Part shown: one piece after another, positions 47,098 through 64,000 of the stretch
How the letters are laid out: the number at the start of each line of letters is the position of its first letter
Position numbering within the stretch: position 1 is the stretch's first letter
The notes under the pieces: model-generated
Told to the model about the DNA's origin: nothing
Databases searched by the model: none
What the model saw: only the letters and a program-made list of their open reading frames with translations
Position numbers and translations under genes: made by a program
Assembly: GCA_963744145.1 (NCBI GenBank)
Contig: CAVUSO010000001.1
Coordinates: forward strand, 2,240,001 to 2,304,000
DNA length: 64,000 nucleotides
From: an uncultured cyanobacterium
GTDB lineage: Bacteria > Cyanobacteriota > Cyanobacteriia > Cyanobacteriales > CAWUOF01
Direction: 5' to 3'

Positions 47098-47121
47098 CTT
47101 GAGAAATTAGCTAAACTACAA

Positions 47122-49065: not shown

Positions 49066-49094
49066 TCTGATCCTCATTATCACTAGAAATAATC

Positions 49095-49808
49095 ATGAAT
49101 AGATGGCTAAATCGAAAAAATCTCGCGATCGCGACGATAATTGCAGTATTCATTTTTCTGGGTATCGCGATTATTAATCATGAGGAAAATGGCTGTTTAC
49201 TATCATCATCTCCCTTATGTCAATCCATGGCAAAAATTCCGACTACTGGTAAAGAAGCATCAGCGATCGGCACCAATTATACTAAACTAGCCCAGTTATT
49301 AACTAGACAGCAATTTGTCTTAGCGGATCAAGAAACAACTGATAAATTGGTATGGATCTACGATCCCAAATCAGTGGAACTGGGAAGAATCGATAATGTT
49401 AATCAATTACCTTGTCAGGACTTAAAAACTATTGATAAATTATGGACTACTGCTAGTGGTGGGAAGTATGGATTTACTATTCAAACTAAAATCTATCAAG
49501 AAATTATTCAGAAAGAAAAAAATAAACCACCATATCAAGACATTGACAAAATTTACCAAACTTTTGCCAAACAAGTAGGATGGAAAGTTGGAAAAGATTT
49601 ACAGCATTTAGAAGAATTAAGTTTTGATCCAGGAGCAGGAAAGGGACATCTACCTATGACCTATGTTACATTAGGAGTAGCAAGTTGCTGTCGAGACTTC
49701 ACTTTAAAAAATATATTTAAATTATGCTTCATGTGTTCACCATGGCAATCTGCTGCACCTGGTTTTTTGCCATCAATGTTAAATAGAATTAAATTATGTA
49801 AAATATAA
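49095..49808 (+). CDS. Membrane-anchored GUN4 domain protein
   Basis: N-terminal TM; NYTKL..LL..ADQET; PCQDLKTIDKLW...SGGKYGF.IQ; GHLP. Confidence 0.8.
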   Translation: MNRWLNRKNLAIATIIAVFIFLGIAIINHEENGCLLSSSPLCQSMAKIPTTGKEASAIGTNYTKLAQLLTRQQFVLADQETTDKLVWIYDPKSVELGRIDNVNQLPCQDLKTIDKLWTTASGGKYGFTIQTKIYQEIIQKEKNKPPYQDIDKIYQTFAKQVGWKVGKDLQHLEELSFDPGAGKGHLPMTYVTLGVASCCRDFTLKNIFKLCFMCSPWQSAAPGFLPSMLNRIKLCKI

Positions 49809-49831
49809 CTCTTGGAATCAGACAATTAATT

Positions 49832-50905
49832 ATGTCCAACCAAACGATTGCTAATTTATCGATCAATACAGAAATTAACAATATTCGTCAACTGGGAATT
49901 AACCCCCATCACTGGTATGTAGTTGCTCGTAGTTCGGAGGTACAAACTGAGCCATTAGGAATTGTATTGTGGGATCAGCCCATCGTATTATATCGCGATC
50001 GCACTGGAAAAATCTATGCTTTAGAAGATAGATGTCCCCACCGTCAAGTTAAATTAAGTCATGGTAAAATCATCCTTGATCAACTAGAATGTGCTTATCA
50101 TGGCTGGCGATTTAAGTCAAGTGGAGAATGTGCAGAAGTACCTTATTTAGCGACTAATCAAAAACTACCTAATTGTCAAATTCGGGTATATCCAGTGAGA
50201 GAACAAGACGGATTTATCTGGATCTTTCCTGGAAATGAGCATTTATCAACCAAGGTTTCTCCTCTGAGCATTCCCGAATGGGAACATCTTAATTATATTG
50301 CCACCGTAGCAATCATTGAATGTCAAGCTCATTATTCTTATTTAATCGAAAACTTGATGGATATGTATCACGGGCACTTACATCAAAATTGGCAAGCTTG
50401 GGCAGATGCAAAATTAGAAAATTTAGTGGAAAATGAAAATCAAGTTGATGCTTATTATCAAGCCCAAAGTTATTATAAAATTGATCAAATCTGGTCAATC
50501 TCTCAATTATTTTTTCCCGGATTGCGCCAACTCCATCCTGAACCTTTAAAGGTAAGTTATATTTATCCTCATTGGTGTTCAACTTTAGGTCAAGACTTTA
50601 AAATTTACTGTCTGCTAGCTCCCATAAATGAAACTGCAACCCGTGCTTATTTAATTCACTTTACCTCTTTAAATGCCTTTTCGCGCTTGCACAAATTACC
50701 AATAGCATTCAGAAGATTTATCAAAAATAGCCTATTTGGCTCTGCTCAAAAATTACTAAATGGTTTAGTCAGTCAAGATGTGCAAATGATTGAAGAAGAA
50801 CAACAAGCTTATCTCAAAAATCCGCAAATTAGTAATTATGAATTAAACCGAGCTTTAGTAAGTGTGCAAAGATTAATGAAAATTCAATCCCAGAGCAAAA
50901 TTTAG
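49832..50905 (+). CDS. Rieske non-heme iron oxygenase (CruH-like candidate)
   Basis: CPHR..CAYHGW Rieske motif; ENLMDMYHGHLH mononuclear Fe motif; next to cruE. Confidence 0.8.
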   Translation: MSNQTIANLSINTEINNIRQLGINPHHWYVVARSSEVQTEPLGIVLWDQPIVLYRDRTGKIYALEDRCPHRQVKLSHGKIILDQLECAYHGWRFKSSGECAEVPYLATNQKLPNCQIRVYPVREQDGFIWIFPGNEHLSTKVSPLSIPEWEHLNYIATVAIIECQAHYSYLIENLMDMYHGHLHQNWQAWADAKLENLVENENQVDAYYQAQSYYKIDQIWSISQLFFPGLRQLHPEPLKVSYIYPHWCSTLGQDFKIYCLLAPINETATRAYLIHFTSLNAFSRLHKLPIAFRRFIKNSLFGSAQKLLNGLVSQDVQMIEEEQQAYLKNPQISNYELNRALVSVQRLMKIQSQSKI

Positions 50906-51075
50906 CTCCTCTCCAAGGGAACCTGAGAAATTAGTTTTCTGTCTTTATCTAAAAGGAGGTCTGAATCACCATCTATTTCTTGGTCATCCAATCGGGTGAT
51001 CCGAATGATGGTAAATCCAGACTTCAACAAGCTAATCTAGGGTTAAAAACACAGGTTTGGGATTCAGAAAGCAAT

Positions 51076-51615
51076 ATGAAACCTATACTTTTGGGAACTA
51101 CAGCATTAATACTTATTCTGGGTATTGTGACTCCTGTCAAAGCCCAACTTGGTATGACTGGGAATAATGGTACTTTGATCGCTCGGGATGACTCCAGAAA
51201 TGATTACTATCGCGATCGCCAAAATGATCGTTACTATAGCGATCGCGATGATGACAATACTCAAAATGATTACTACTCCGACTCCAGCGATCGCAGTAAT
51301 CAAGAAAACCATTACAATGATATTGATCAAGTTTTTCGTGCAGTTATCGGTCGAAATGCTGATCGCAGTGGGCTCCGTTTCTATTCCAGACGGATGGACT
51401 CAGGTTGGTCGATCGATCAAGTCCGTGAACATCTTGCTTATAGTCCAGCAGCCCAACGAGCAATTAACGAAATTTATCGGGAAATACTCGGTCGAAATGC
51501 TGAACCTGAAGGGCTAGATTTATATAGTAGACGTTTAGCTAGAGATTGGTCACTCAGACAAGTTCGTCACGAAATTGCTGATAGTAAAGAAGCTAAAAAT
51601 AGAAGACATCATTGA
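51076..51615 (+). CDS. Secreted protein with DUF4214-like repeats
   Basis: Signal peptide ending VKA; two I...YR.ILGR.A...GL..YSRRL...WS..QVR repeats. Confidence 0.65.
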   Translation: MKPILLGTTALILILGIVTPVKAQLGMTGNNGTLIARDDSRNDYYRDRQNDRYYSDRDDDNTQNDYYSDSSDRSNQENHYNDIDQVFRAVIGRNADRSGLRFYSRRMDSGWSIDQVREHLAYSPAAQRAINEIYREILGRNAEPEGLDLYSRRLARDWSLRQVRHEIADSKEAKNRRHH

Positions 51616-51865
51616 GCAACTAGATCCCCTTAAATCAGCAAGATTTAGGGGGAATTAAGAATTTTAGGATTAAGATATATAATTGAGAATCTTTAGATTA
51701 TACCACCAAAATAGTCCTGACTAATACCAATTAACCATGAAATTGCACTTAATCTGAGGTTGATCTGTTAGGTCAGGGCAGGTTTATAATAGTGACCTGT
51801 TGGTGACAGAATTGACTGGTGAACCTGCCCCTACCAATTTTATCTTCTATTTACGGGTTTTTGTA

Positions 51866-52030
51866 GTAGGGGCGGGTTCGCCCAGATTTTTGAAATTTAC
51901 CAATTAATTAGAAAAACCCGCCCGGGTTCGCCCAGATTTTTGAAATTTACCAATTAATTAGAAAAACCCGTCCGGGTTCACCGAGATGTTTGAGATTTAC
52001 CGACTAATCATCAAAACCCACCCTCACCCA
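51866..52030. repeat. REP hairpin expanded to three 50-bp tandem units
   Basis: Units start at 51874, 51924 and 51974; the first two are nearly identical. Confidence 0.85.
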
Positions 52031-52078
52031 CAGATCAATATACATCAATGTATCTTCATGGTGAATTGGGATAATTCA

Positions 52079-53158
52079 CTATTTGCGGATATTTCTGTCA
52101 AGATCAGGTTTTTGATCTGCGTAATTTTTTTTGACTTGCCAAATCTTGATAGTTTCATCAGAGCTAGCACTAGCAAGAGTATTGCCATGAGGATTGAAAG
52201 CAATAGACCAAACTGCTTTACTATGACCGATAAAAGTATTGATTAATTGCCCAGTATTAGTATTCCACAATCTAACTTTTTTGTCGTAACTGCCAGTAGC
52301 AAAAGTTTTTCCATCTGCACTAAAAGAAACAGAAAAAATTGCGTTATTATGTCCTTGAATAGTGCGAATTAACTGATCATTTTGCATATTCCAAAGTCTA
52401 ATTATCCCATCATAGCTACCACTAACTAAAATTTTTCCATTGGGACTAAAAGCAATAGAGCGAACTGCTTTTTCATCTGCTGCTAATGGAACTTTTAACT
52501 TACCTGTATTTAACTGCCAAATATTAATTTCGCCATTTTCAGTACCACTTGCAACCAAACGTCCATCAGGACTAATTGCCACAGTTCTGACTGGATTATT
52601 ATTATGTAAAGTATAAATTTCTAAACCAGTTTGTATATTCCACAATTTTACTGTATTATCCCAACTACCACTAGCTAAAGTTTTACCATCAGAACTAATA
52701 GATATTGACTTAACATCATCTAAATGTCCGTCAAGAGTAAGAATAAGTTTACCAGTTTTAAGATTCCATAGTTTAATTCTTCTATCCCAACTACCACTAG
52801 CAAGAATTTGGTTATTAGGACTTATAGCAAGAGCATCAACAGCTTCAGGATGAGCATTAATACTGTGAATCAATTTATTATTTCTCAGATTATAAATATT
52901 AATCATACCCTGATAATTACCGCTTACTAAAGTTTGACCATCTCGGCTAATTGCTAGAGCAAATATCCAGGCAGAATCTGGTTTAAGAGTAAGATTTTTT
53001 TGAGTGACTAATAAAGAATTTCCAGCGGTAGAATCTAGCTCTTTGTTTGATAAAAACGTTGCTATACTTAATCCAATCCCAATTGCTATAATTGCTAGGG
53101 CACTAATTTTTAAAGCTAAGGAAACTTTTTGATAGAATGGCATAAATTTTATGATCAA
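52079..53158 (-). CDS. WD40 repeat protein with N-terminal TM anchor
   Basis: Seven repeats of GH...V..AISPDG..LASGS.D..IKLW. Confidence 0.92.
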   Translation of the reverse strand: MIIKFMPFYQKVSLALKISALAIIAIGIGLSIATFLSNKELDSTAGNSLLVTQKNLTLKPDSAWIFALAISRDGQTLVSGNYQGMINIYNLRNNKLIHSINAHPEAVDALAISPNNQILASGSWDRRIKLWNLKTGKLILTLDGHLDDVKSISISSDGKTLASGSWDNTVKLWNIQTGLEIYTLHNNNPVRTVAISPDGRLVASGTENGEINIWQLNTGKLKVPLAADEKAVRSIAFSPNGKILVSGSYDGIIRLWNMQNDQLIRTIQGHNNAIFSVSFSADGKTFATGSYDKKVRLWNTNTGQLINTFIGHSKAVWSIAFNPHGNTLASASSDETIKIWQVKKNYADQKPDLDRNIRK

Positions 53159-53172
53159 ATATTTGGGGTTGG

Positions 53173-53700
53173 TTAGTTTAGTTTATTTTGTTTGCTCGCC
53201 CGGGTTTCAATCCAAATTCTGATCATAAAAGAGACTGTCGTGACCAGAATAAATACAATTCCAATCGGTGTCAAATATGTCCAATGACCTAACATTTTGC
53301 CCCAAATATGCCAAGTTAAAAGAAACATCGCCAAATAAGTTAATTTATGTAACTTTTTCCAATCAGCTTTTAGTTTTTTGACACTCCAATCGTTTGAAGT
53401 AGCTGCTAGAATAGTAAAAATTGCGAAGGTGGATAATCCTTGAAAATAGACACTATAAGTTTTAAAATCAAAAAAATCAACATCTCTCTTACTAATTAAC
53501 AGAAAAGCATGACCGATCGTAAAAAAGAAAGCCAATATCCCAATTAAACGACGGTGTTTCAGCAAATTTTGAGGAATTTTAGTTACTTTTGTTACCGGAA
53601 ATACAATTTTCAGAATTGTCGGAAGTACTGTCACTATGTAGCTAATTAATGCCAAAAATCCTAGAAAGTTAGCTAGTACCGGCATATCCATTGTCAGCAT
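53173..53700 (-). CDS. Ferric reductase-like transmembrane (MsrQ-like) protein
   Basis: RR.IGILAFF...H; LAATSNDWSVKKL..WKKLHKLTY. Confidence 0.8.
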   Translation of the reverse strand: MLTMDMPVLANFLGFLALISYIVTVLPTILKIVFPVTKVTKIPQNLLKHRRLIGILAFFFTIGHAFLLISKRDVDFFDFKTYSVYFQGLSTFAIFTILAATSNDWSVKKLKADWKKLHKLTYLAMFLLTWHIWGKMLGHWTYLTPIGIVFILVTTVSFMIRIWIETRASKQNKLN

Positions 53701-53844
53701 ATTTTCAAATCATAAATATGTTTAATCGCAATTTGCGCCAAAATAGACTAACTAGCAGATATCTTCTGTGATTAAGATCACATCCTGATTTTGTGATCAC
53801 AGAAAAACAGCTAGGATACGCCCCGTATTATAACTATAATAGTT

Positions 53845-54133
53845 TTATCGCTCCAAAATTTTGATTAGAATGCGAATTAGACTTTCTAGTTCATTAGGAA
53901 CGCGATAAAGGGTAAGCCCCTGTTGAATTTGCTTTTGCTCTCGGTGTATAATACCAAATTGCCAAATATCACCTGTGGAAACGGCTCCTTGCAGGATTGG
54001 TTGCTCATGATCTGTCCACTGGTCTAAAGCGATTAGCTCCACTGCAAGTTGGGTAAATCCTTTAGCTAAGTCGGCATTTTTTGCTTCAATCACAAGGAGT
54101 TTGTCCGGGTTGGAGAATAGGGCGTTTGGACAT
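53845..54133 (-). pseudogene. Internally deleted PD-(D/E)XK-like hypothetical gene
   Basis: MSKRPILQPGQ N-terminus is joined out of frame to LLVIEAKNADL.KGFTQLAVELIAL..GAVSTGDIWQF. Confidence 0.65.
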
Positions 54134-54166
54134 GGTAGGATGGGATTTATTACAGATCAGCCCAGC

Positions 54167-54540
54167 ATGGTACAAGTATCCTCGAAAATATTAACATTGG
54201 CAGAGTTTCTAGAATTACTAGAAACCAAACCTGCAACTGAATACATTAATGGGCAAATTATCCAGAAACCTATACCACATTTGCGATCGCTCCAGATTGG
54301 ACAATTGAAATATTGTCTCCTGATCAAAGCCAAACAAAAGTCACCAAAAATATTCTTCATTGTCTGAAATATGGTACTGAAATGGGTTGGTTGATCGATC
54401 CAGATGAGCAAACTGTGTTTGTCTATCGTCTCCAAGCAGGAATTGAAGTGTTTGATGCTCCAGATAATCTTATTCCTGTACCATCCTTTGCGAAGGAATT
54501 GCAACTTACAATTAAAGATTTGTTTGCTTGGTTATTATAG
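54167..54540 (+). pseudogene. Uma2 family pseudogene with internal deletion/frameshift
   Basis: LTLAEFLEL.ETKPATEYING.IIQKP joined out of frame to FAIAPDWTIEILSPDQSQTKV. Confidence 0.8.
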
Positions 54541-54542
54541 CA

Positions 54543-54780
54543 CAATACAGTTAAATATACTGTAGGGGCGAAGCATTCGGGCGACAATTTATTGCTCAAG
54601 TCCGTTAATATTGTATCCGAATGCTTCGCCCTTCTTTGCCGATATCTCCCAAAACATCCTTAAATGAACCGTATTGCAATATAGTTTAGCATCAAACAAT
54701 GAAAAAGAAGGGCGAAGCATTCCGGGAATAAATCACTCGTTGTAACCAATAACTGATCTGCCGGAATGCTTCGCCCCTAC
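54543..54780. repeat. MITE/REP cluster (gtaggggcgaagcattc family)
   Basis: caatacagtt..aaccgtattg around hairpin 54562-54633; second inverted hairpin 54707-54780. Confidence 0.75.
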
Positions 54781-54829
54781 AAAAACATTCACATTATGTT
54801 AATTTTGTCAATGAGCAACACAGAAATCT

Positions 54830-55074
54830 TTATTGTGTTTCTTCACTTAGATCAAGCAGTGGTTTTAATAAGTTGCGTTCTTCGATCGGAAGTTCTAATA
54901 AGACACGGCGATCGCTTTTAGTCTCCCGATACCTAACATCCATACAAAAGCACATCAGTGGCTCTCTCAGCTCATAATAAGACTCGCGTCCAATTGCTTC
55001 AGAATAAACATAACCCATATCTCGTAAATTCTTTAATTGACTACTAGTCTGCGGCGTAAGTTCGGATACCCTTT
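54830..55074 (-). pseudogene. Remnant of an HTH/ATP-binding protein gene
   Basis: TPQ.SSQLK.LR..GYV....GRESYYELREPLM joined to LLELPIEER.LL; truncated by the IS fragment. Confidence 0.5.
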
Positions 55075-55422
55075 TTAAGCTGTTAGCGCTTTCCCCTTGT
55101 AAGTCCACTGAAAGGGTTTGGCCATCGTGCGGTTGAAATAATCAATGAACTCAACAATGCGAGTTTTTAAGTCAGCTTGACTGAGAAAATTGCCCCGTCT
55201 GAGTAACTTCCGCATTAAGATCCCGAACCAAATTTCAATTTGATTGAGCCAAGAGCAATGCTTGGGAGTGAAGTGAAAGACGATGCGATGGGTTGGATCT
55301 TTTAGAAACGCCGCTCGGGTTGCCATCGATTGGAGAATGCCACTCTTGCCCTTGATGCCCAGATCCATCTCCAATCCCTCTGCGGTTGCCAAATAGCGCA
55401 CCAGCGATTCCGACTGATGAGT
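55075..55422 (-). mobile_element. IS630-family transposase C-terminal fragment
   Basis: [55 protein letters not shown]. Confidence 0.85.
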
Positions 55423-55650
55423 CGGTTTTAGCATCGGTCGGCGGCGATCGCTTCCATTTTCCTTTATGCTACATTCGCGAATAGCGAATAATCAAAATGT
55501 GGCTCTAATCCTTAAGAAAAACTAATTATTCCTCAGTTCATCTTGACTTACTAATAAAAAATTATGTATTATCTCATTTAAGTAAGAGATTGACTTGGCT
55601 GACCCGATCGCATTTTCAGATTGGGCTGTTCTTCATCAAGTTTTTTAGTC
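55423..55650. repeat. ~230-bp direct repeat, copy 1 (back-to-back promoters plus the first codons of an HTH gene)
   Basis: Aligns by eye with 62668-62898; rightward TTGACT-N18-TATTAT (55543-55572); leftward TTGATT-N18-TAGCAT. Confidence 0.85.
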
Positions 55651-55710
55651 TTTGCTGTGAAAAATTGCGATCGCACGGGTAAATCAACCATATCACCAGG
55701 TTAAGACGCC

Positions 55711-58044
55711 ATGAATTTAGAGTCACTCAAGCCCAACGTTCAAGATCTGCAAGAGGATGTTATTCTTCTGCTCAATAATATCAGTAATTTGATGAGTAGT
55801 GCTAGTACAATACTAGGTTCTGATGCTGGTAAGAAATATAAAGAATTTCAGCAAGACGTTACCAAGGAAGTTAACAAAGTAAAGAATCTAGAATTAAGAA
55901 TGGCCATTGTCGCACCAATGAAAGCAGGTAAATCTACAATCATCAATGCCATTGTCGGACATGATTTTTTGCCTAGTCGCAATACGGCAATGACGACACT
56001 CCCTACAGAGATTATTTTTAATGATCAAAAAACCGATCCAAAGCTAACATTAAGCGACAAAATATGTTCAGCTTTTCAACGAACAATTAAAGCTTTACAA
56101 GACGAAATTAAGAAATTAGGAACTGAGGCAACACAAGAGAAGATAAGTAAACAAGGGAAGCAAGAATATTTAGTAAATCTGGCACAGAAAATACAAGATA
56201 CAGCCAATTTTCCAATAAATGCTGAAACCTATGGATTTAAAGAAATTAAAAATACTCTGACTGATTTAAACGATATTATCCGTTTGTGTAGCTTACTAGA
56301 ACCTTCTAAAGACCCGTTGCGTGAGCTGATCGAGTTTCCCTGTATAGAGACACCATTTTGCAAATTACAAAAAAACGATCATTTACAGATGTTAGGAAAT
56401 TTGGTGATTGTCGATACCCCAGGGCCAAATGAAGCGGGACAAAACCAGATATTAGAGGAAGTGGTTAAAGAACAACTAAAGAACAGTTCCATTGTATTGA
56501 TTGTTTTGAACTTTACAGCACTGAACACAAAAGCTGATGAGGATGTTAAGAAGGAAGTTGACAAGGTTATTAAGCTACGGGGTAAGGACAGCTTATATGT
56601 TCTAGTTAACAAAGTTGATCAGCGTCAAAAAGGTGACATGACCTCTGAAGATGTCAGCGAATTCGTTGCATCTAAATTTAATATAGGTGATTCAGATGAT
56701 ACCGAGCGCGTGTTTGAAATATCGGCGAGACAGGCATTATATGCTACCAAATTTCTGCTGGAATTCCAGCAGAATCAAGATGTTGATATTACTGAAATGG
56801 AAACCGTAGAGGAACTAGCACAGGAAGCACTTGGCCCAAGGTGGAAAGACAAATTGAAAAAGAAAAGTGTAGAAGATATGCAAGAAGAAGCTGAGTATCT
56901 TTGGGAAGAATCAGGTTTTGTACCATTTCTGGAAAAAGCTATTAATGCACTTATGGAAAGTGCTGCACCTCGGTGTATAAAGTCTGCACTAAATCTTAGT
57001 CGTAATTATTTAGAACAGCTAAGTAAAGATGTTGAATTTCGTAGCAATGCCATTGCCAAAGAAGCAACTGGACTACAAGTTCAAGTTGCTGCTTTAGAAG
57101 CTGATTTAGAACATCTTGATTTATGTCGTAGTCGTCTTAATCAAGTGGATAAAATTAAGGCAGACCTTAAAACAAATCTTGAGAAAATATTTAACTTGCT
57201 AAAGAAAAAATCCAAAGTGAGTATTGAAGATTATTTTGAAAAAGAAGAGTTTAATAACGCTAAACTTGCCGAGAAAGTGTTTATTGTAATGACTAAGATT
57301 TTTCAAGGTAAAGATTATAAAAGTTCTGGCATAATTGAATTTAAAAATCTTCAAGATGCAAAAGAGTTTAGTGATCTAGCATTGGCTTACCCAAAAGATA
57401 AAATAAATCGTTTATTAGCGGATAATCGCGAACAAGTTACAAAGCAGATTAAACAATCATGTAAAACATTGCTTAATTCGTTGGAAAGTCAAACTAACGA
57501 AATTATTGAACGTGCGCGTATTCGTTTGAAAGAAAATTTTCATGTAGATCTATCCCCACCACCGATCCCAGACTGGAAACCTGTGGATTTTGTTGGATAT
57601 CAATTTTCGAGCCAGACAAGAGAAACAACTGAATTTCAGACAAGAAAATACAGACCTTGGTGGCTCCTTTGGCTAATTGAGCTAGAAGAAAAAGTCCCAA
57701 TTAACAAAACTGAAGATTACTATACTGTCTCCTTAGAAGAGTTAATTGATAAGATAAATAAATCAATTGATGCTAATTTAAAAAAAATAGATCAAGAGAT
57801 AAATAACTATCTTGATGAAGATTTTCAGCAACGAATTGATATCTTTTTTGAAAATCTTGATCGTTACCTTCGTAACTATAGAGATAGTTTAAGGCAAGCA
57901 CAGGAAGATAAAAAACTATCACTTGATGACAAAAAAAAATTAGAATGTGAACTTAGTTCATTAGTTTTAGATGCCGCTTCACAAATTGAAAAAATAGATA
58001 CCTATCTCCAATGGACAAACTCATTAATACCAGACAAGCGATGA
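55711..58044 (+). CDS. Dynamin-like GTPase, CrfC/YjdA (RdcA) family
   Basis: AIVAPMKAGKSTIINAIVG..LPSRN.AMT.LPT; DTPGPNEAGQ; LYVLVNKVDQ; long helical stalk with hydrophobic WWLLWL tip. Confidence 0.85.
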   Translation: MNLESLKPNVQDLQEDVILLLNNISNLMSSASTILGSDAGKKYKEFQQDVTKEVNKVKNLELRMAIVAPMKAGKSTIINAIVGHDFLPSRNTAMTTLPTEIIFNDQKTDPKLTLSDKICSAFQRTIKALQDEIKKLGTEATQEKISKQGKQEYLVNLAQKIQDTANFPINAETYGFKEIKNTLTDLNDIIRLCSLLEPSKDPLRELIEFPCIETPFCKLQKNDHLQMLGNLVIVDTPGPNEAGQNQILEEVVKEQLKNSSIVLIVLNFTALNTKADEDVKKEVDKVIKLRGKDSLYVLVNKVDQRQKGDMTSEDVSEFVASKFNIGDSDDTERVFEISARQALYATKFLLEFQQNQDVDITEMETVEELAQEALGPRWKDKLKKKSVEDMQEEAEYLWEESGFVPFLEKAINALMESAAPRCIKSALNLSRNYLEQLSKDVEFRSNAIAKEATGLQVQVAALEADLEHLDLCRSRLNQVDKIKADLKTNLEKIFNLLKKKSKVSIEDYFEKEEFNNAKLAEKVFIVMTKIFQGKDYKSSGIIEFKNLQDAKEFSDLALAYPKDKINRLLADNREQVTKQIKQSCKTLLNSLESQTNEIIERARIRLKENFHVDLSPPPIPDWKPVDFVGYQFSSQTRETTEFQTRKYRPWWLLWLIELEEKVPINKTEDYYTVSLEELIDKINKSIDANLKKIDQEINNYLDEDFQQRIDIFFENLDRYLRNYRDSLRQAQEDKKLSLDDKKKLECELSSLVLDAASQIEKIDTYLQWTNSLIPDKR

Positions 58045-58150
58045 CTGAGTTTTTATATTAACCATAAATTTAACTGGCTAGGATAAAATTTAGATATTAT
58101 TAGCCAATAAATCTGTGTAGAATAGATAGTAAATAGGATATGCTTATGAT

Positions 58151-59287
58151 ATGATTACAGCCATCACGATTGAAGGATTCAAAAGTTTAGAACAGGTTAA
58201 CTTAAACCTAGGTAACCTTAATCTATTTATTGGTACAAATGCTAGCGGAAAGTCTAACTTCTTTGATGCTTTGCGGGTATTGCAGGGAATTGGTTATGGA
58301 TTTACCATTGATGAAATATTCAATGGTAAACCAAAAAGTGCTAGTAGTGAAGTTTGGGAACAAATTCGCGGTGGAAGCAGTAAAGCAGACTTCGTAAGAC
58401 GCGGTGATTTAAACCCTAACTTAGAAGAACGAGTAATTCGCTTGTCTGTTCACTTGCAATTACGAGATGAATCTACTACTCAGATTCAATATTCTATCAG
58501 TATCTCAGCCCAGTTTAGTTGTGTTCGTAGCGAAAAACTTCAGGTTGGCGATCGCCTAATTTTCGATTCTGAGCCAATTACTAATTTACCAACAAGTCCA
58601 GTTTTAGAAATTCGGTACTACACAGGTAAACCAGGACAACAACCACACCTAAAATTTGAAAACTCTAGACCAATTTTACATCAATTACTGCGCGATCGCC
58701 ATTGTGATCCAGAACACGCTGAATATATAGAAAATTGTATTCATGCACTCAGTAACAGTCAACATCTCGATCCATCTCCTAGTATTTTACGCAATTATTC
58801 TCAGGCAAATATTGTCAAAAGAATGGGAGAAAAAGGCGAGAATTTTGCCGGATTAGTGAAAAATATTATCGCCGATGAAAAAGAAAAAGACGCTTTTGTC
58901 TCTTGGCTGAAAGAATTGACACCTAATGAACTTGATGATATCCGTATTTTGCATGGTGCAGTAGGAGAGGCATTATTTGCATTAAAAGATGGAGAACAAA
59001 TTCATCCAGCCACAATTTTATCAGATGGTACACTAAGATTTTCAGCAATTACCGCCGCATTTTTTCAGCCAGATCTGCCAGATATTATCACTAATGAGGA
59101 TGATTATCAAACAACATTTATTTGCGATCGCGATAAAGAAACAGGTGCGACAAACCTAGTACCACTAATCAAATTACCGCATTTATTAAAGAGTATTCAG
59201 AAACAGTCAATTACCGAATTATTTGCGGAGGGTTGGTTTGAGCGTCTGTCCTCAAGGATTTACAAAACCGCATTCAAAATTTATTAA
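58151..59287 (+). pseudogene. AAA_21/RecF-like ABC ATPase, apparently lacking Walker B and H-loop
   Basis: IEGFKS, IGTNASGKSN, LSDGTLRF are present; PDIIT runs straight into NEDD with no EEPE/E.E.G.HP or TTHSP. Confidence 0.6.
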
Positions 59288-59308
59288 AATCTGAATAATA
59301 TTAAACTT

Positions 59309-60346
59309 ATGAATTTTCTCAGTCCCTCTACTCGTCGTCTTCAAGAACTACAACGCCAAGTTCCTATTGTTGGCGATCGAGCCTTAATTGATCTAGTTAA
59401 CGGTATTCAGGTTAGTAAAGACATTATTAGATTTCGCAAAAATCGTGGTTTCTTCGGACAATTACTAGATACATTAGACGGTAGTAATCAGCAACGTCAA
59501 CTCTTATTAGATGGTAACTTACTGGCTGGACAAGAAGCTTTATATCAATGGGTATTAGAGATAACCGATTCACTCCGTATTAGTCAAGTTGCTTTAGAAA
59601 TTACTCAACAATCTTTATTAGAAGCAAGGGCAGCTATTCGCCATCAAAAAGAAAGATTACAAAATCAAGAAACTGCTTTTTTACGGCTAATTGAAGTTGT
59701 ATCTAATCTGGAACGAGAAGTTAATCATAGAATTGATTTATTAGAAGCACGGGTACGGAATTTAGAAATTCGGGTAGCTGCTAATGAAGATTTAGATAGA
59801 ATTATAACTGCCTGGACCGCAGCACAAACCTATAATAATCTTCCTTGGGTTTTTCAAGTTGCCTTACTTACTAGGGAGGCATTTACTAGCTCTGTCGCAA
59901 TTTATGAACTCGCAACAGGGGATCTCAATAAATTTCGTAACCTACTGGTAAATAAAATCCTATCTCATAGTCATTCAATCCCTAAAAGCTTTTTTGGATT
60001 TGCTGATTTGCTCGATCGCTCTTGTGCAGAAATGAAAGCAAACGATTCATTTGCTCGCGATCGCTTCTCTTTACAAGAATTAACCACAGCTTTACTCGAA
60101 GTTCGTTCCATCCCGCTTCAACGTCTGCAAAATACACCTGTACTATTTACCATTGGGACAAGTTTAGAACTAGCGATCTTACCGGAAAATGCTAAACCAA
60201 GCAAAATAGGTGAATGCGCGATCGCTCTTTGTTGTTCACAAATTTATCCGATATACCGCACTACTGACGCAAGAGAATTAGTCACTGCTATAGTAACAGA
60301 AACCGCCAATGATTGTTTAGAAACACTTAGTAGGAGTTCGCGCTAA
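59309..60346 (+). CDS. YjcZ (RdcB)-like protein
   Basis: LIDLVNGI..V, GFF..LLD...G....RQ, central coiled coil, W.A..TY..L; recalled similarity to the YjcZ family; neighbour of a YjdA-like GTPase. Confidence 0.6.
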   Translation: MNFLSPSTRRLQELQRQVPIVGDRALIDLVNGIQVSKDIIRFRKNRGFFGQLLDTLDGSNQQRQLLLDGNLLAGQEALYQWVLEITDSLRISQVALEITQQSLLEARAAIRHQKERLQNQETAFLRLIEVVSNLEREVNHRIDLLEARVRNLEIRVAANEDLDRIITAWTAAQTYNNLPWVFQVALLTREAFTSSVAIYELATGDLNKFRNLLVNKILSHSHSIPKSFFGFADLLDRSCAEMKANDSFARDRFSLQELTTALLEVRSIPLQRLQNTPVLFTIGTSLELAILPENAKPSKIGECAIALCCSQIYPIYRTTDARELVTAIVTETANDCLETLSRSSR

Positions 60347-61353
60347 TGAAATCTAGTCATCCCCAATTTGGACTGGTGCTAACGGGCGGTGGTGCAAAAG
60401 GAGCTTATCAAGCTGGTGCTTTGCAGTATCTCGCTGAATTAGGATTAGAACCACAAATAATTGCTGGTACAAGTATTGGCGCTTTGAACGGTGCTGTTTT
60501 ATCATCCTATCAGCCTTTTTCCTACGCTGTCCATCGTTTAAATGAACTTTGGGAGGAATTAGGTGATGCACCAATCCTACGGTCAAATCCTAATGGATTA
60601 CTACCAATTATTAGTTATGCTACCCAAACTTTCGTGCCTACTTTCAGAGAGTGGATGCTAGATTTCTTGATTAACCAAGGACTATTGAAAAACCGTAAAG
60701 CTATATATGACCCAACCGCAATTGAACAGTTGTTAAGAGAAAAAGTTAATCCCTCAGCACTGCGACAAGGTATCGAATTATGGGTGACAGTCTTTCCCTC
60801 TCTCAAAATTCCTGGTTTAGATTGTGACTGGTTGATTGATTTTATTCGCGCTAAGACTGGAACGGGCGCACATTGGCTTTGCGCTCAAGATATTACTAAT
60901 GATGCTAATCTGTACAATGTACTCCTAGCTAGTGCAGCCATTCCTTTATTATTTCCCAGCCGAGAAGTTAATGGGCAGTTTTATGTAGATGGAGCTTTAG
61001 CTGATAATGTACCTCTAAGGGCACTGGCAAAGTGTGGGTGTCGTTATGTTATAGTTATTCATCTGCAAAATGGATCTGTTTGGAATCGTCATAATTTTCC
61101 AGAGCAAACCATTATTGAAATTAGACCTGAAACAGCAATTAATAAGTCTGATACACCGTTACTAGGTCAAATTAGTAGTTTACTAGATTTTAGTGCTGAA
61201 CGAATTGCCGAACTTAAACAGTGTGGTTATGAAGATGCTAGACGGTGTTTAGAACCAATTATCCAAACCTTTAGCACTGTTTATGAGCAACGGCGATCGC
61301 AAAACTCACTACTTGAATCAACATGGGAACTTATGAACGATCCAAAGCTATAA
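60346..61353 (+). CDS. Patatin-like phospholipase
   Basis: LTGGGAKGAYQAG, GTSIG nucleophile motif, ASAAIP..F, YVDGAL.DN.P; start overlaps the upstream stop (TAATG). Confidence 0.9.
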   Translation: MKSSHPQFGLVLTGGGAKGAYQAGALQYLAELGLEPQIIAGTSIGALNGAVLSSYQPFSYAVHRLNELWEELGDAPILRSNPNGLLPIISYATQTFVPTFREWMLDFLINQGLLKNRKAIYDPTAIEQLLREKVNPSALRQGIELWVTVFPSLKIPGLDCDWLIDFIRAKTGTGAHWLCAQDITNDANLYNVLLASAAIPLLFPSREVNGQFYVDGALADNVPLRALAKCGCRYVIVIHLQNGSVWNRHNFPEQTIIEIRPETAINKSDTPLLGQISSLLDFSAERIAELKQCGYEDARRCLEPIIQTFSTVYEQRRSQNSLLESTWELMNDPKL

Positions 61354-61423
61354 TATCAACCACATCATGTTAGATGTAGAAGATTTTCAATCCGATGTTA
61401 AAACACTAGAATCACTGGCATTG

Positions 61424-61726
61424 CTATTGTTTGTCGTCTAAATCTAGTGGGTAAGGAAGCGGTTTCCCACGTCCCTGCAACTGATAACGCACAAGCACAT
61501 TAAAGGAACGCTTTGGTGGTATGGGGTGATAGCTAGTTTCAGTAATATCTTCGGGAGATTCTAGTGATTGTTCAACAGATGTCAAGTGCTGCCATATAGT
61601 ATCTGTTAATTCAGCCAGTTTCTGTCTCTCTAAACTTCTTGGTTGAGTTGCAACTGTTGATTCTCGCACCAATAATTTTGATGAGGTGGTGATGCTGTTA
61701 AGACTTTGTGAGTAAATAGTAGCCAT
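61424..61726 (-). CDS. Hypothetical protein coupled to the TIGR04255 gene
   Basis: Start overlaps the upstream stop at 61726. Confidence 0.55.
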   Translation of the reverse strand: MATIYSQSLNSITTSSKLLVRESTVATQPRSLERQKLAELTDTIWQHLTSVEQSLESPEDITETSYHPIPPKRSFNVLVRYQLQGRGKPLPYPLDLDDKQ

Positions 61727-62472
61727 TAGTCGATTAACTCCCTAGTGCGATCGGTAATACAAGCTTCAAAGACTTGATCTATGCAGGTGTGTAGTTGTTC
61801 TAGAATATACCAGAGTGCTGAATCATCATCGGGGAGATCGATGTCTCGAACTAGCTCAATATCCAAAAGGATAGAAACTACATCTGGGCTAGGTGGTGGA
61901 ATAATTGCCTGATTGAGAATCAACTGGGATCTTAAATCCTCTTGGGGAATTTGTAATTGCATGAAGTAACCACTTAGACCTTGCGGTAAGTCAGATGAAA
62001 CTTCAGGTACTGTCCGTAGGTAGTCTTTGAAGTCTTCAAAAGGAAAAGGTAGATCGAGTCGGTTAATATATCGCAAAGCCAATCGAATAATGCGCTTTGG
62101 GTTGATAGTTGATTGATAAATCTTCCAGAGTCGCTGTGCTTCATCTCGGAATGTCTCCCATCGATCATAGGGAGCAAGTCTACTGAAGGTAAAACCATCC
62201 AATCGAGACTGAAAAATCTGCTTTTGATCACTGCTTGAGAAGATGTAGCCTACTTGATTTTGACTGATTGTACTCCCTAAACTAGCACCAACTACCATTT
62301 GACTCTGAAAAATCATGATTTCCTGACGGTTTGGGTAGTCTGTTTTAATATTTGAATGTATATCCAATATGGTGGCAAGTGTCACTTCTTCAGACAGTTC
62401 AGTCCGGAGGTCAATTATAGCTTCGGTGAGCGGTGCGTGTGAGTAGTGTTTCGATAATGGCATAGCAATCAT
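61726..62472 (-). CDS. TIGR04255 family protein
   Basis: HY..APLTEAIIDLR, DGFTFSRLAPY..WE.F, RLALRYINRL, FE.CITD..REL. Confidence 0.8.
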   Translation of the reverse strand: MIAMPLSKHYSHAPLTEAIIDLRTELSEEVTLATILDIHSNIKTDYPNRQEIMIFQSQMVVGASLGSTISQNQVGYIFSSSDQKQIFQSRLDGFTFSRLAPYDRWETFRDEAQRLWKIYQSTINPKRIIRLALRYINRLDLPFPFEDFKDYLRTVPEVSSDLPQGLSGYFMQLQIPQEDLRSQLILNQAIIPPPSPDVVSILLDIELVRDIDLPDDDSALWYILEQLHTCIDQVFEACITDRTRELID

Positions 62473-63257: not shown

Positions 63258-63455
63258 AGAGTATGATTAAATTCATTATCTTCGCGTCTGTAAGCTTTTT
63301 GGCTGCACCCTTGATGGTTTGTTTGATTTTTTCGGTTAAGATTTGCTATATTGCTATAGAATGAGGGAGTTTAGTTTAACGATTCACCCCATTGGTTGAG
63401 GAGTTGCCTGATCAACTAAATGGAATTTTACTTATTTTACAGGATCATAAAAATC

Positions 63456-64000
63456 ATGAGATTAACAAAAGAACAAAAAGAACTTTTTGATTTATTGTAT
63501 GAAGATCGCCAAGAAACTGCAAAAGTTTTAGAAAAGCAATCAATGAGAGGAGTAAAGATCAGTGCCACCGAGAAATATTCAGAACAGGCTCATTTTATCT
63601 ATGAATTATTACAAAATGCCGATGACGTAAAAGCTACAAATGCAAAATTTATCTTAGAAGAAAATAGATTAATCTATATACATAATGGTTCAATTGGTTT
63701 TACGATTAGTGACGTAAGAACGGAGAAACAAGATACCGATAATCATTGTTTAGGTCATATAAATTCAATCACATCTATTGGTAATTCAAATAAATATGGC
63801 GCTCAAATAGGTAAATTTGGTGTTGGGTTTAAAGCCATTTTTCAATATACAGAAACTCCTCATATATACGATGATGTGTTTTCATTTAAAATAGAGAAAT
63901 TTATAGTACCTATATTACTTAATCAAGACTTTCAAGACAGAAATAAAGGAGAAACTGTATTTTACTTTCCTTTTGATAAATTAGAAAAAAAGCCAGATGA
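63456..64000 (+). CDS. Sacsin-like GHKL ATPase, N-terminus (runs off the window; absent from the ORF track)
   Basis: MRLTKEQ..EKYSEQAHFIYELLQNADD..HNG..SITSIGNS.K...IGKFGVGFKAIFQYTETPHIY. Confidence 0.85.
   Translation, partial: MRLTKEQKELFDLLYEDRQETAKVLEKQSMRGVKISATEKYSEQAHFIYELLQNADDVKATNAKFILEENRLIYIHNGSIGFTISDVRTEKQDTDNHCLGHINSITSIGNSNKYGAQIGKFGVGFKAIFQYTETPHIYDDVFSFKIEKFIVPILLNQDFQDRNKGETVFYFPFDKLEKKPD

Follow-up and report, generated by a model that had tools for sequence, protein, structure and literature searches.

A mobile dynamin-YjcZ-patatin gene module as a candidate GTP-controlled phospholipase switch

The window analyzed in this study is a 64,000-nucleotide stretch of DNA from an uncultured cyanobacterium. 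As the initial annotation had described, it carries a run of four co-oriented ORFs, all on the + strand. They encode an intact dynamin-like GTPase of the CrfC/RdcA type (55711-58044, 777 aa), a degenerate PDC-M07A-like ABC/AAA_21 ATPase (58151-59287, 378 aa), an all-helical YjcZ/RdcB-like protein (59309-60346, 345 aa), and a patatin-like phospholipase (60346-61353, 335 aa) with a C-terminal extension at about residues 242-335. The overlap of the patatin start with the YjcZ stop was also found as described, in the TAATG at 60344-60348. A promoter-like site (TTGACT-18-TATTAT, + strand) was located upstream of the dynamin gene at 55543-55572; it is a consensus match only, and since the search returned 18 sites versus 20.0 expected in shuffles, the site is not evidence by itself. 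Among the neighboring genes, the IS630 fragment, the TIGR04255 gene, and the sacsin-like P-loop gene were confirmed, but the AbiEi-like remnant was not, as ORF 54830-55108 had just a weak ArsR-type HTH match (6.4e-5) and no Pfam family.

The dynamin translation contained the G1 (APMKAGKST), DTPG, and NKVD motifs that had been attributed to it, and profile searches matched Dynamin_N (4e-16) and the NCBIfam CrfC model (9.6e-65, 219 bits, span 44-733). G1, the G2 Thr, DTPG, and NKxD were conserved in 33-34 of 34 dynamin orthologues, and identity to E. coli RdcA was 32% over 404 aa. The best Foldseek matches of the AlphaFold2 model (pLDDT 79) were SynDLP, BDLP, and IniA, with E about 1e-12. A beta-hairpin in the model spanned residues 633-674 and carried PWWLLWLIEL (649-658) at its tip, and no transmembrane helix was found in the dynamin, YjcZ, or patatin when all three proteins were checked. 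We propose that the dynamin is a nucleotide-state switch. A match to YjcZ was absent from 6 of 19 dynamin-positive genomes, and the source genome itself encodes a solo dynamin paralogue (44% identical) that adjoins neither YjcZ nor patatin. The surroundings of this paralogue are ordinary chromosomal ones, with a gene for a D-Ala-D-Ala carboxypeptidase as its neighbor.

The ATPase gene had been recorded as damaged and as a member of the gene run; the damage was confirmed and the membership had to be corrected. Up to residue 305 the protein, of the AAA_15/AAA_21 families, could be aligned to a 425-aa paralogue encoded in the same genome, and it kept Walker A and the signature motif; the stretch that carries Walker B and the H-loop in the paralogue was lost in frame. 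Its gene is co-oriented and inside the operon, and its family, PADLOC PDC-M07A (1.3e-42), is listed among candidate defence ATPases, both of which favor a four-component system with the ABC ATPase between dynamin and YjcZ. However, no ATPase homologue was found in the 47 + 8 = 55 related loci. In most intact loci, the YjcZ start overlaps or abuts the dynamin stop (gaps of -10 to +14 bp), and the ATGA at the dynamin stop of the window (58041-58044, + strand) is probably what remains of an earlier YjcZ start that overlapped the dynamin gene. The insertion of ~1.26 kb that follows (58045-59308, + strand), consisting of an AT-rich leader and the ATPase gene, is peculiar to the source genome and had no convincing terminal repeats. 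In other genomes the same intergenic gaps hold unrelated cassettes (RelE-type, XisH/XisI, HicB-like, nucleotidyltransferase/HEPN-like, IS630, and DDE transposase), and are therefore simply insertion sites. Because it is absent from 55 of 55 related loci and lacks Walker B and the H-loop, the ATPase is, judged from sequence, an unrelated dead gene inserted in the source genome alone and no module component. The four-component reading is already close to refuted, and we give it hardly any credence.

The YjcZ call was upheld by a PF13990 match (1.7e-8, 34.6 bits, above the cut-off of 27) that covered profile positions 1-146 of 272 only, and YjcZ relatives carry the source name 'RdcB family'. With E. 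coli RdcB itself, the family shares a distant similarity (hhalign probability 16%, E 0.0016). AlphaFold2 predicted a protein made of helices throughout (pLDDT 76) with a conserved C-terminal bundle, and residues 14-58 were of low confidence when YjcZ was folded alone. The patatin matched PF01734 (4.7e-42) with the annotated GGGAKG, GTSIG, and DGA motifs all present; GGGxKG, Ser43, and Asp215 were conserved in 32-33 of 33 orthologues. The two proteins are also found as natural fusions, with YjcZ at the N-terminus and patatin at the C-terminus in all nine family representatives of 646-728 aa. Named fusions come from Nostoc and Streptomyces. When the YjcZ-patatin complex was modeled, the score was 0.69 (median of three runs) versus 0.00 for the best of three controls, so that the prediction passed its controls; the same mark had been attained by 116 of the 157 solved complexes and 2 of the 215 mismatched pairs. 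The runs agreed in at least 91% of contacts, with partner pLDDT of at least 74. The predicted interface consisted of YjcZ residues 21-103 and patatin residues 242-329. Conserved columns were enriched among the YjcZ interface residues (21/36 versus 122/345), and conservation on the patatin side was not above the rest of that protein (9/30 versus 89/335). No solved structural relative of YjcZ was found, and the score is therefore not the recall of a known complex. The model makes it likely that the complex forms, with YjcZ as the proposed patatin-binding adaptor and patatin as the proposed effector.

We further determined how often the genes occur together. Of 46 loci with room for it, 44 had a patatin gene downstream of YjcZ, and a dynamin gene was upstream in 49 of 50 loci. 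Where both flanks were available, the trio was complete in 40 of 42 loci and intact in 31. On the basis of these counts, the gene order (dynamin, YjcZ, patatin) is far beyond chance. In a sample of the phylum covering 401 genomes and 156 genera, YjcZ was present in 17 and 14 of them, respectively; a strong patatin match (E <= 7e-70) was obtained in 16 genomes, all among these 17, and the 17th had a patatin fragment. The trio was kept in divergent subfamilies, to 32% YjcZ identity, and on enterobacterial plasmids (patatin 33% and dynamin 27% identical over full length), and the scores of the three genes fell together (Spearman 0.80, 0.81, and 0.67 for 30 intact loci, whose kin are not independent). 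Four metagenome loci matched along the whole YjcZ-patatin query, three of them with the trio, and the other 76 of 80 were generic patatins. By these counts, the shared genomes, the fusions, and the complex model, the three genes almost certainly constitute a real functional module, in agreement with the three-component unit of the initial annotation. The trio had not been recognized there as a described system, and we likewise found no description of it in the literature.

The module is borne by Nostoc plasmids and by IS-flanked enterobacterial plasmids; carriers include small mobilizable plasmids, and copies also lie between IS elements. Among complete E. coli genomes it was present in 5 of 5,426, in every case on a plasmid. 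Flanking genes were not conserved beyond close kin, and the module is by all appearances self-contained and horizontally mobile. Carriers include plasmids of gut bacteria, and plasmid copies are found beside ParDE-type and VapC genes. The module was decayed in 11 of 42 loci. An intact patatin gene remained beside a broken or missing dynamin gene in five loci (L021, L037, L041, L052, and L069), and in L069 YjcZ was also broken, leaving a 145-aa fragment. In L047 and L096, a DO-GTPase1/DO-GTPase2 pair and two paralogous ~400-aa proteins were encoded directly upstream of YjcZ-patatin, in the usual place of the dynamin; the ~400-aa proteins had no Pfam match, GAP1 domains included.

The argument that the module lies in a defence island has so far not been borne out. 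Using PADLOC matches at E <= 1e-12 and, as the control, 20 random regions of cyanobacterial genomes carrying the module, we found no enrichment by ORFs (18/210 near the module versus 15/118) or by loci (15/44 versus 11/20). The Fisher p values were 0.25 and 0.11 (the second test with 45 loci), and both comparisons leaned to fewer matches near the module. Counted post hoc, specific matches of at least 100 bits occurred at 10/44 loci versus 2/20 controls (p 0.32). Searches of 50,697 phage records and of IMG/VR yielded no copy of the module. The system is not included in PADLOC v2, which has no YjcZ model and gave just a weak LeoBC match to the dynamin. A role of the module in phage defence is unproven. 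The patchy spread, plasmid and IS carriage, decay, and DO-GTPase variant are hints of conflict-type features, and a conditional self-damaging effector of conflict or defence on mobile elements is a possibility to which we give somewhat less than even odds.

Our main reading, with a probability of roughly 0.55, is that activation of the patatin is gated by the GTPase. It starts from the observed gene association, mobility, catalytic-residue conservation, and natural fusions, with the YjcZ-patatin contact as its modeled part. The patatin-like phospholipase would be the output enzyme, and the YjcZ/RdcB-like protein would be a bound adaptor, its conserved N-terminal region placed by the model against the patatin C-terminal extension. 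The CrfC/RdcA-type dynamin would be the nucleotide-state switch, presumably set by GTP, which through YjcZ licenses the lipase for membrane phospholipids. The dynamin probably engages the membrane first, which it may reach via the Trp/Leu-rich hairpin tip. The module would work as E. coli RdcA/RdcB does. In that pair, the dynamin-like GTPase responds to GTP/(p)ppGpp and, jointly with its partner, switches on a membrane enzyme through direct contact; here the enzyme would be the operon-encoded phospholipase. Since intact patatin genes were kept beside broken or missing dynamin or YjcZ genes, the lipase alone is apparently tolerated. It is because of this pattern of decay and the RdcA/RdcB precedent that we infer activation rather than inhibition, in line with the sensor-activates-effector proposal of the initial annotation. 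Inhibition would be expected of a toxin-antitoxin or plasmid-addiction pair, in which YjcZ holds a patatin toxin inactive and the dynamin modulates its release. The antitoxin-like gene does come first and is translationally coupled, a complex is predicted, and plasmid copies neighbor ParDE-type and VapC genes. However, the patatin of L069 is intact though its YjcZ is a fragment, the common covalent fusions do not fit a labile antitoxin, and YjcZ, whose 345 aa include a conserved C-terminal bundle, is large for one; we hold such a pair to be very improbable.

Improbable as well is membrane repair, by which the dynamin would seal or fuse damaged membrane like B. subtilis DynA and the patatin would clear damaged lipids from the lesion, protecting from phage or antibiotics by repair instead of suicide. 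The modeled fold is that of membrane-remodeling bacterial dynamins (SynDLP, BDLP, and IniA), its hairpin tip is hydrophobic, and DynA delays phage lysis according to PMC8844932. However, the closest sequence relative, RdcA, is a soluble signaling GTPase without a membrane-binding domain according to its authors (PMC13463826), and both the fusions and the close coupling of YjcZ to the patatin speak for enzyme control and not for a scaffold. A physiological regulator, which we judge somewhat unlikely, would have the GTPase, like that of E. coli, read the cellular GTP/(p)ppGpp state and the patatin remodel or recycle lipids of the thylakoid or cytoplasmic membrane at entry into starvation or stress, and the cell would survive. 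The lack of enrichment of known defence genes, the failure to find phage-borne copies in the phage records and IMG/VR, and the ordinary chromosomal setting of the solo dynamin paralogue would all suit this role. Yet the module occurs in just 17/401 genomes and 14/156 genera, in unrelated genomic contexts, with copies between IS elements and on small mobilizable plasmids, and it has decayed in 11/42 loci. A housekeeping stress response would seldom show this pattern, which would nonetheless suit an accessory niche trait.

The proposed GTPase-gated phospholipase has counterparts among known systems. Legionella VipD is a patatin-family lipase whose activity is switched on by a GTPase binding its C-terminal domain, and it is a secreted effector using a host Rab GTPase. 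The VipD structures 4kyi and 4akf were among the solved patatins nearest to the window patatin by sequence (E about 3e-7), with the likeness confined to residues 7-61, the N-terminal patatin motif. In contrast to VipD, the C-terminal extension of the window patatin is predicted to be contacted by YjcZ, and a dynamin takes the part of the GTPase. The CBASS patatin CapV is likewise a latent effector requiring an activating input (PMC12480259). However, the window operon encodes neither a CD-NTase nor another generator of a nucleotide signal, its patatin weakly matches CapV models (NCBIfam 33 bits versus a cut-off of 200; PADLOC 1.9e-8), and its proposed activator is a protein complex. The DO-GTPase/GAP1 conflict systems, predicted near the membrane, join a GTPase switch to variable effectors (Kaur et al. 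2020, eLife; PMC7159879), and L047 and L096 put the DO-GTPase pair in the place of the dynamin before YjcZ-patatin. The window system uses a dynamin instead, and the words patatin, dynamin, and YjcZ are absent from PMC7159879. Eleos ('dynamins', LeoA and LeoBC) is also a bacterial dynamin-like GTPase system in a sporadically distributed operon, and its protection against jumbo phages depends on the P-loop (bioRxiv 10.1101/2022.05.11.491447). It has two consecutive dynamins and no lipase, whereas the window has one dynamin with YjcZ and patatin; the window dynamin matched PADLOC LeoBC partially (4e-9, 34 bits) and LeoA not at all. According to the same preprint, 60% of Eleos systems adjoin defence systems, whereas the window module shows no such enrichment.

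In E. coli, RdcA (YjdA/CrfC) and RdcB (YjcZ) switch on the diguanylate cyclase DgcE through direct contact, and GTP/(p)ppGpp controls this (PMC6510439, PMC13463826). The module is built alike, with a dynamin-like GTPase gene followed by an overlapping YjcZ-family gene, 32% identity between the dynamins over 404 aa, a CrfC model match along the length of the protein, and a YjcZ above the PF13990 threshold. However, the window dynamin misses the CrfC equivalog cut-off (219 versus 1146 bits), the similarity of the window YjcZ to RdcB itself is marginal, and the window module is mobile and patchy whereas the E. coli pair is a chromosomal flagellar-regulon operon. No patatin adjoins the E. coli operon, and neither PMC6510439 nor PMC13463826 uses the word patatin or phospholipase, while the output of the window module would be an operon-encoded patatin that is often fused to YjcZ. 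Together, the association points to a GTP-controlled phospholipase switch for which we found no description, and we read it as an RdcA/RdcB-type GTPase switch that may have a phospholipase as its output instead of a diguanylate cyclase.

The dynamin-like GTPase gene (55711-58044, + strand, 777 aa) is the first of four co-oriented ORFs, all of which were found with their motifs as described in the initial annotation. Its product matched the Pfam Dynamin_N family (4e-16), and the GTPase motifs (G1 GKS, G2 Thr99, DTPG, and NKxD) were kept in 33-34 of 34 dynamin orthologues. With a large GTPase domain and the G1-G4 motifs, the protein belongs to the dynamin superfamily. E. coli RdcA was 32% identical to it over 404 residues, and the NCBIfam CrfC model NF007368 matched residues 44-733 (9.6e-65) at 219 bits, the equivalog cut-off of 1146 bits not being reached. 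Judged by these matches, the window dynamin is a homologue, but not an equivalog, of RdcA/CrfC. The AlphaFold2 model (pLDDT 79) consisted of a GTPase domain, a helical stalk, and a beta-hairpin with a Trp/Leu-rich tip (PWWLLWLIEL, residues 649-658). Foldseek placed the model next to SynDLP (7zw6), BDLP (2j68), and IniA (6j72), with E values of 2e-12 to 4e-12 and a probability of 1.0 at low TM-scores (0.34-0.47), and mitofusins were also among the neighbours (low TM-scores, E about 1e-12). The predicted structure thus has the helical stalk and the overall fold of solved BDLPs, and BDLP was the sole PDB relative detectable by sequence. Transmembrane helices were found in none of the dynamin, YjcZ, and patatin proteins; the modelled hairpin tip is the sole pointer to possible membrane binding and GTP-dependent remodelling by the dynamin. 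Of the 19 dynamin-positive genomes in the 401-genome sample of the phylum, 6 lacked a YjcZ match, their dynamin copies standing alone, so that the dynamin family appears to be somewhat wider than the trio. The window's own genome carries a second, solo dynamin of the same family (L175:5576-7963, or G000:C1:4455575-4457962 on the genome's contig; 795 aa, 44% identical), with a D-Ala-D-Ala carboxypeptidase gene on one side, a convergent histidine kinase gene on the other, and a hairpin with a T-run 3' of it.

The YjcZ/RdcB-like protein (59309-60346, + strand, 345 aa) matched Pfam PF13990 (YjcZ) at 34.6 bits (E 1.7e-8; gathering threshold 27) over profile positions 1-146 of 272 only, and six relatives from related loci scored 30-43 bits. 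The YjcZ call made in the initial annotation thus stood, over part of the profile, while its CrfC call stood as homology and fell as equivalence. Among the cyanobacterial relatives, many carry the source annotation 'YjcZ-like' or 'diguanylate cyclase regulator RdcB family', and a profile comparison of the window's YjcZ family with E. coli RdcB itself was weak (probability 16%). Only 379 of 1.84 billion representatives matched it at E <= 0.001, so that the family as a whole is small. Foldseek returned no match to the YjcZ fold in the PDB at E <= 0.001, VIA-align over 48,161 chains returned only generic coiled coils or helical bundles (Z <= 8.1), and a profile search of PDB sequences gave coiled-coil noise only (best E 1.3e-4, residues 103-161). 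We know of no biochemical role for the YjcZ family. The patatin-like phospholipase gene (60346-61353, + strand, 335 aa) overlaps the YjcZ stop with its ATG, and the TAATG first reported there was read in the sequence. The protein matched the full PF01734 profile (4.7e-42), and the GGGxK/RG oxyanion motif, the GxSxG serine, and the DGA/G aspartate of the Ser-Asp dyad were kept in 32-33 of 33 orthologues. It is thus a member of the Pfam patatin family, as the YjcZ-like protein is of the YjcZ family, and a predicted lipid acyl hydrolase. One YjcZ and one patatin of the module type were present in the window's own genome.

Co-occurrence was counted on 55 loci anchored on YjcZ. Where at least 1.1 kb was available 3' of YjcZ (46 loci), a co-oriented patatin homologue was present in all but L014 and L020 (44 loci). 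Where at least 2.5 kb was available 5' of YjcZ (50 loci), a dynamin homologue was present in all but L047 (49 loci). Both flanks were available at 42 loci, and 40 of these had all three genes. The trio was intact in 31 of these 42 loci, tightly packed (gaps <=120 bp) in 21, and visibly decayed in 11. In most intact orthologous loci the dynamin stop overlapped or abutted the YjcZ start (-10 to +14 bp). When the phylum was sampled evenly, YjcZ occurred in 17 of 401 genomes and 14 of 156 genera, and strong patatin matches (E <= 7e-70) occurred in 16 genomes, all within those 17. The 17th genome had a patatin fragment, and the remaining 8 patatin matches in the sample were short and weak. Divergent subfamilies, with YjcZ proteins 32-42% identical to that of the window, retained all three genes, and the similarity scores of the three genes dropped jointly across 30 intact loci (Spearman 0.80, 0.81, and 0.67, kin not being independent). 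Clustering of flanking ORFs found flanking genes common to close kin only, with no fourth conserved gene recurring beyond them. These counts argue that the dynamin, YjcZ, and patatin genes form a real, self-contained module, in line with the co-occurrence expected in the initial annotation.

In the window, a 1.26-kb insertion parts the dynamin from YjcZ, and the ATGA at the dynamin stop looks like a relic of an overlapped YjcZ start. The inserted ABC-type ATPase gene (58151-59287, + strand, 378 aa) matched AAA_15/AAA_21 and, with PADLOC, PDC-M07A (1.3e-42, positions 1-306 of about 435). Its residues 1 to 305 aligned with a paralogue of 425 aa from the same genome; the stretch that bears the Walker B motif and the H-loop in the paralogue was then missing, and the alignment resumed in frame with the C-terminal tail; the damage first noted in this gene was therefore real. 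No ATPase homologue was present in 47 related reference-genome loci or in 8 loci of divergent subfamilies. Other operon gaps hold RelE-type, XisH/XisI, HicB-like, and nucleotidyltransferase/HEPN-like genes, IS630, and a DDE transposase; cassettes or inserts lay inside the operon at L040, L052, L063, L062, L026, L044, and L041, and at L041 the dynamin gene was interrupted by ~5 kb of inserted DNA bearing several ORFs. Given such varied cassettes in the same gaps of other genomes, the gaps attract insertions and the ATPase is one more, a dead remnant and an intruder in the operon. A fourth component was rejected on the absence from these 55 loci and the missing Walker B motif and H-loop. An intact PDC-M07 system was likewise rejected, since the match was partial, the Walker B and H-loop stretch was gone, and no PDC-M07B partner was matched among the 14 window ORFs scanned with PADLOC (47062-62472). 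The only terminal repeats found for the insertion were short and weak, one example being an inverted pair of 15 nt with 80% identity. A scan for promoters and terminators gave results at chance level. Palindromes of the GCGATCGC type, which we take to be the cyanobacterial HIP1 repeat, recur at window 57800-59600, several of them within the ATPase insert, which makes the composition of the insert native-like.

Nine of the best 150 family representatives measured 646-728 aa, and each of the nine was a natural fusion in which a complete YjcZ is joined to a complete patatin; two of them are named (Nostoc and Streptomyces). A metagenome scan with the alignment of the nine fusions picked up generic patatin motifs, with 4 of 80 loci relevant and no fusion among them. 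The YjcZ-patatin complex proposed for modelling in the initial annotation was predicted when each protein was supplied with an alignment, at 0.69 (median of three runs) versus 0.00 for the best of three controls. Of 157 solved complexes 116 attain this mark, as do 2 of 215 mismatched pairs. At least 91% of contacts were common to the runs, with a partner pLDDT of at least 74. Since YjcZ has no solved relative, this result is not recall of a known complex. In the model the C-terminal extension of the patatin (242-329) would lie against YjcZ 21-103, a part predicted with low confidence when YjcZ was folded alone. Conserved columns were enriched at the YjcZ side of the interface (21/36 vs 122/345) and not at the patatin side (9/30 vs 89/335). 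The fusions and the modelling suggest that YjcZ and the patatin physically belong together, which would give the YjcZ family a concrete, predicted binding partner whatever the role of the module.

A tblastn search of 72,556 plasmids with YjcZ returned 23 records, 2 from mobilizable Nostoc plasmids and 21 from enterobacterial plasmids (Klebsiella 10, Enterobacter 8, and Escherichia 3). On the four plasmids inspected, the genes were ordered as 'dynamin family protein', 'RdcB family'/'YjcZ-like', and 'patatin-like phospholipase', with stop/start overlaps in both enterobacterial plasmids and partly in both Nostoc plasmids. The trio of the IncF plasmids lies between IS5- and IS30-family transposase genes (L091:3279-10579 in E. 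coli NZ_CP072541.1, and L093 in K. pneumoniae NZ_CP084844.1), arranged like the cargo of a composite element. Its DNA was 100% identical among E. coli plasmids of unrelated sources, and the whole trio was found in 5 of 5,426 complete E. coli genomes, plasmid-borne each time. Homology between the E. coli plasmid proteins and those of the window extended from end to end, with 33% identity for the patatin and, over 750 residues, 27% for the dynamin. Candidatus Moduliflexus was the source of two loci, and a metagenome locus with the trio had 56% G+C. The module is thus mobile and cross-phylum. YjcZ had no tblastn match in 50,697 phage records, and no relative was found among IMG/VR viral contigs. 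The three-component system proposed in the initial annotation is well supported, and it is extended by its carriage across phyla and on plasmids, its fused forms, and a modelled contact.

At two loci the dynamin is replaced. L047:4165-11047 (a Scytonematopsis MAG) and L096:2317-9018 (a metagenome contig) share the order of a ~400-aa protein, DO-GTPase1, DO-GTPase2, a paralogue of the 400-aa protein, YjcZ, and patatin, and are 38-69% identical per gene; the ~400-aa proteins matched no Pfam family. Three cyanobacterial loci have a DUF1232-domain gene between YjcZ and the patatin (L020:3844-4575, L030:10131-10649, and L032:10038-10766), which may be an optional fourth, membrane-associated component; at L020 its start overlaps the YjcZ stop. 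A Clp_N domain is fused N-terminally to YjcZ at L054:1465-3006 and in the YjcZ-family protein P0137 (513 and 519 aa), and L054 has a patatin after the fusion and no dynamin in the 1.4 kb available upstream. In one genome, L064:5818-13907 carries a dynamin, YjcZ, a second dynamin of 818 aa that is nearer to the window dynamin than the first, three small genes, and a patatin. Around the module in the 7.7-Mb cyanobacterial host genome are GUN4 and WD40 genes, an IS630 fragment, a TIGR04255-family gene (61424-62472, - strand, 5.1e-46), and a sacsin-like P-loop/SACS-domain gene (63420-63998) that continues past the window end, the last three as first annotated. The 'AbiEi-like remnant' of that description was not recovered. 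A 100-aa ORF abutting the TIGR04255 gene (common base 61726) had no match, and two adjoining short ORFs at 54101-54540 matched Uma2, a putative restriction endonuclease, at profile positions 2-47 and 104-171, and look like a frameshifted Uma2 gene.

The E. coli pair RdcA and RdcB switches on DgcE, a membrane-bound cyclase, through direct interaction with it, and the authors of that work argue that GTP holds RdcA off and (p)ppGpp relieves this (PMC6510439, PMC13463826). By analogy, the module may be a switch of the RdcA/RdcB kind with a phospholipase as its output. YjcZ would hold the patatin through the patatin C-terminal extension, and the nucleotide state of the dynamin would license the complex, or not, to cut membrane phospholipids. 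Intact patatins stood beside a broken or missing dynamin at L021, L037, L041, L052, and L069, and beside a broken YjcZ at L069. Since an intact patatin persists without working partners, the lipase alone seems harmless, and this pattern of decay suggests that the partners activate the patatin rather than restrain it.

What such a switch would serve was weighed between two roles. We put the probability of a defence or conflict role at about 0.4. It is favoured by the patchy distribution of the module, its carriage on plasmids and between IS elements, and its frequent decay, and also by the patatins of CBASS, which are known as latent suicide effectors (PMC12480259). The variant at L047 and L096 points the same way, DO-GTPases being the core of predicted conflict systems in the paper that describes them (PMC7159879). 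A more specific form, on which we would bet only tentatively, is a cross-phylum immune or abortive-infection family in which the dynamin senses an infection-linked change and, via YjcZ, unleashes the phospholipase on the cell's own membrane, YjcZ and patatin being a portable effector joined to various GTPase switches (dynamin, DO-GTPases). Its cue would be falling GTP or rising (p)ppGpp levels, like those read by RdcA, or else membrane damage. If the lipase is an infection-triggered suicide effector, the module would be a patatin defence activated by protein, with no need of cyclic nucleotides, and would join Eleos as a second form of immunity built on dynamins.

Against a defence role stand the lack of enrichment of defence genes near the module, the failure to find a copy in the phage records and viral contigs searched, and the lack of a YjcZ model in PADLOC v2. 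PADLOC matches at E <= 1e-12 within three ORFs on each side were found for 18 of 210 ORFs and at 15 of 44 loci, compared with 15 of 118 ORFs and 11 of 20 control regions placed at random with the same geometry in seven module-bearing genomes. The matches were rarer near the module by both counts, neither difference being significant; the test was run with 45 loci in place of 44 by mistake, the samples were small, and many matches were generic (TnpB, kinases, and ABC ATPases). Specific matches of at least 100 bits (Type I and III methyltransferases, Drt8, RmrA, and PDC families), a post hoc class, were found at 10 of 44 loci versus 2 of 20 controls, which was also not significant. Enrichment beside known defence genes was thus not seen with PADLOC, and the defence label of the initial annotation was left unsupported by this test. 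A GUN4-domain protein (49095-49808) gave a strong 'PD-T4-6' match (1.7e-28) on its GUN4 part, indicating that some PADLOC matches are generic in cyanobacteria. The other role, physiological lipid remodelling, we regard as possible but rather doubtful. Were the lipase no suicide effector, the module would be the first example we know in which the GTP state governs the turnover of bacterial membrane lipids.

A search of ~8.4 million papers and preprints found no description of the trio, a listing in a supplementary table being still possible. Neither RdcA/RdcB paper mentions a patatin or phospholipase, and the DO-GTPase paper mentions no dynamin, patatin, or YjcZ; a 2026 domain-centric defence screen mentions patatin within CBASS only. 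CBASS was rejected, since neither PADLOC nor Pfam revealed a cyclase (CD-NTase) in the scanned window ORFs and the CBASS_lipase (CapV) model scored 33 bits against the window patatin (cut-off 200). Eleos, according to its description, has two dynamins and no lipase (bioRxiv 10.1101/2022.05.11.491447), whereas the module has one dynamin. Of its two or three consecutive dynamins (LeoA and LeoBC), LeoA had no match and LeoBC matched the window dynamin weakly and partially (4e-9, 34 bits), and Eleos was rejected for a module of a single dynamin with a lipase. The closest likeness was to CrfC/RdcA, in that a dynamin is followed by an overlapping YjcZ/RdcB-family gene in the module's orthologous loci, but the in-operon partner of the module is a patatin. 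What we rate as new is an RdcA/RdcB GTPase switch apparently wired to a phospholipase. To our knowledge, RdcA/RdcB has so far been a one-species story, in which a dynamin-like GTPase controls c-di-GMP synthesis in E. coli. The module suggests that this pair is one member of a broader group of switches, each a GTPase with an adaptor, that can control different enzymes, with a natural test bed in partners that are encoded together, often fused, and carried on E. coli plasmids with easy genetics.
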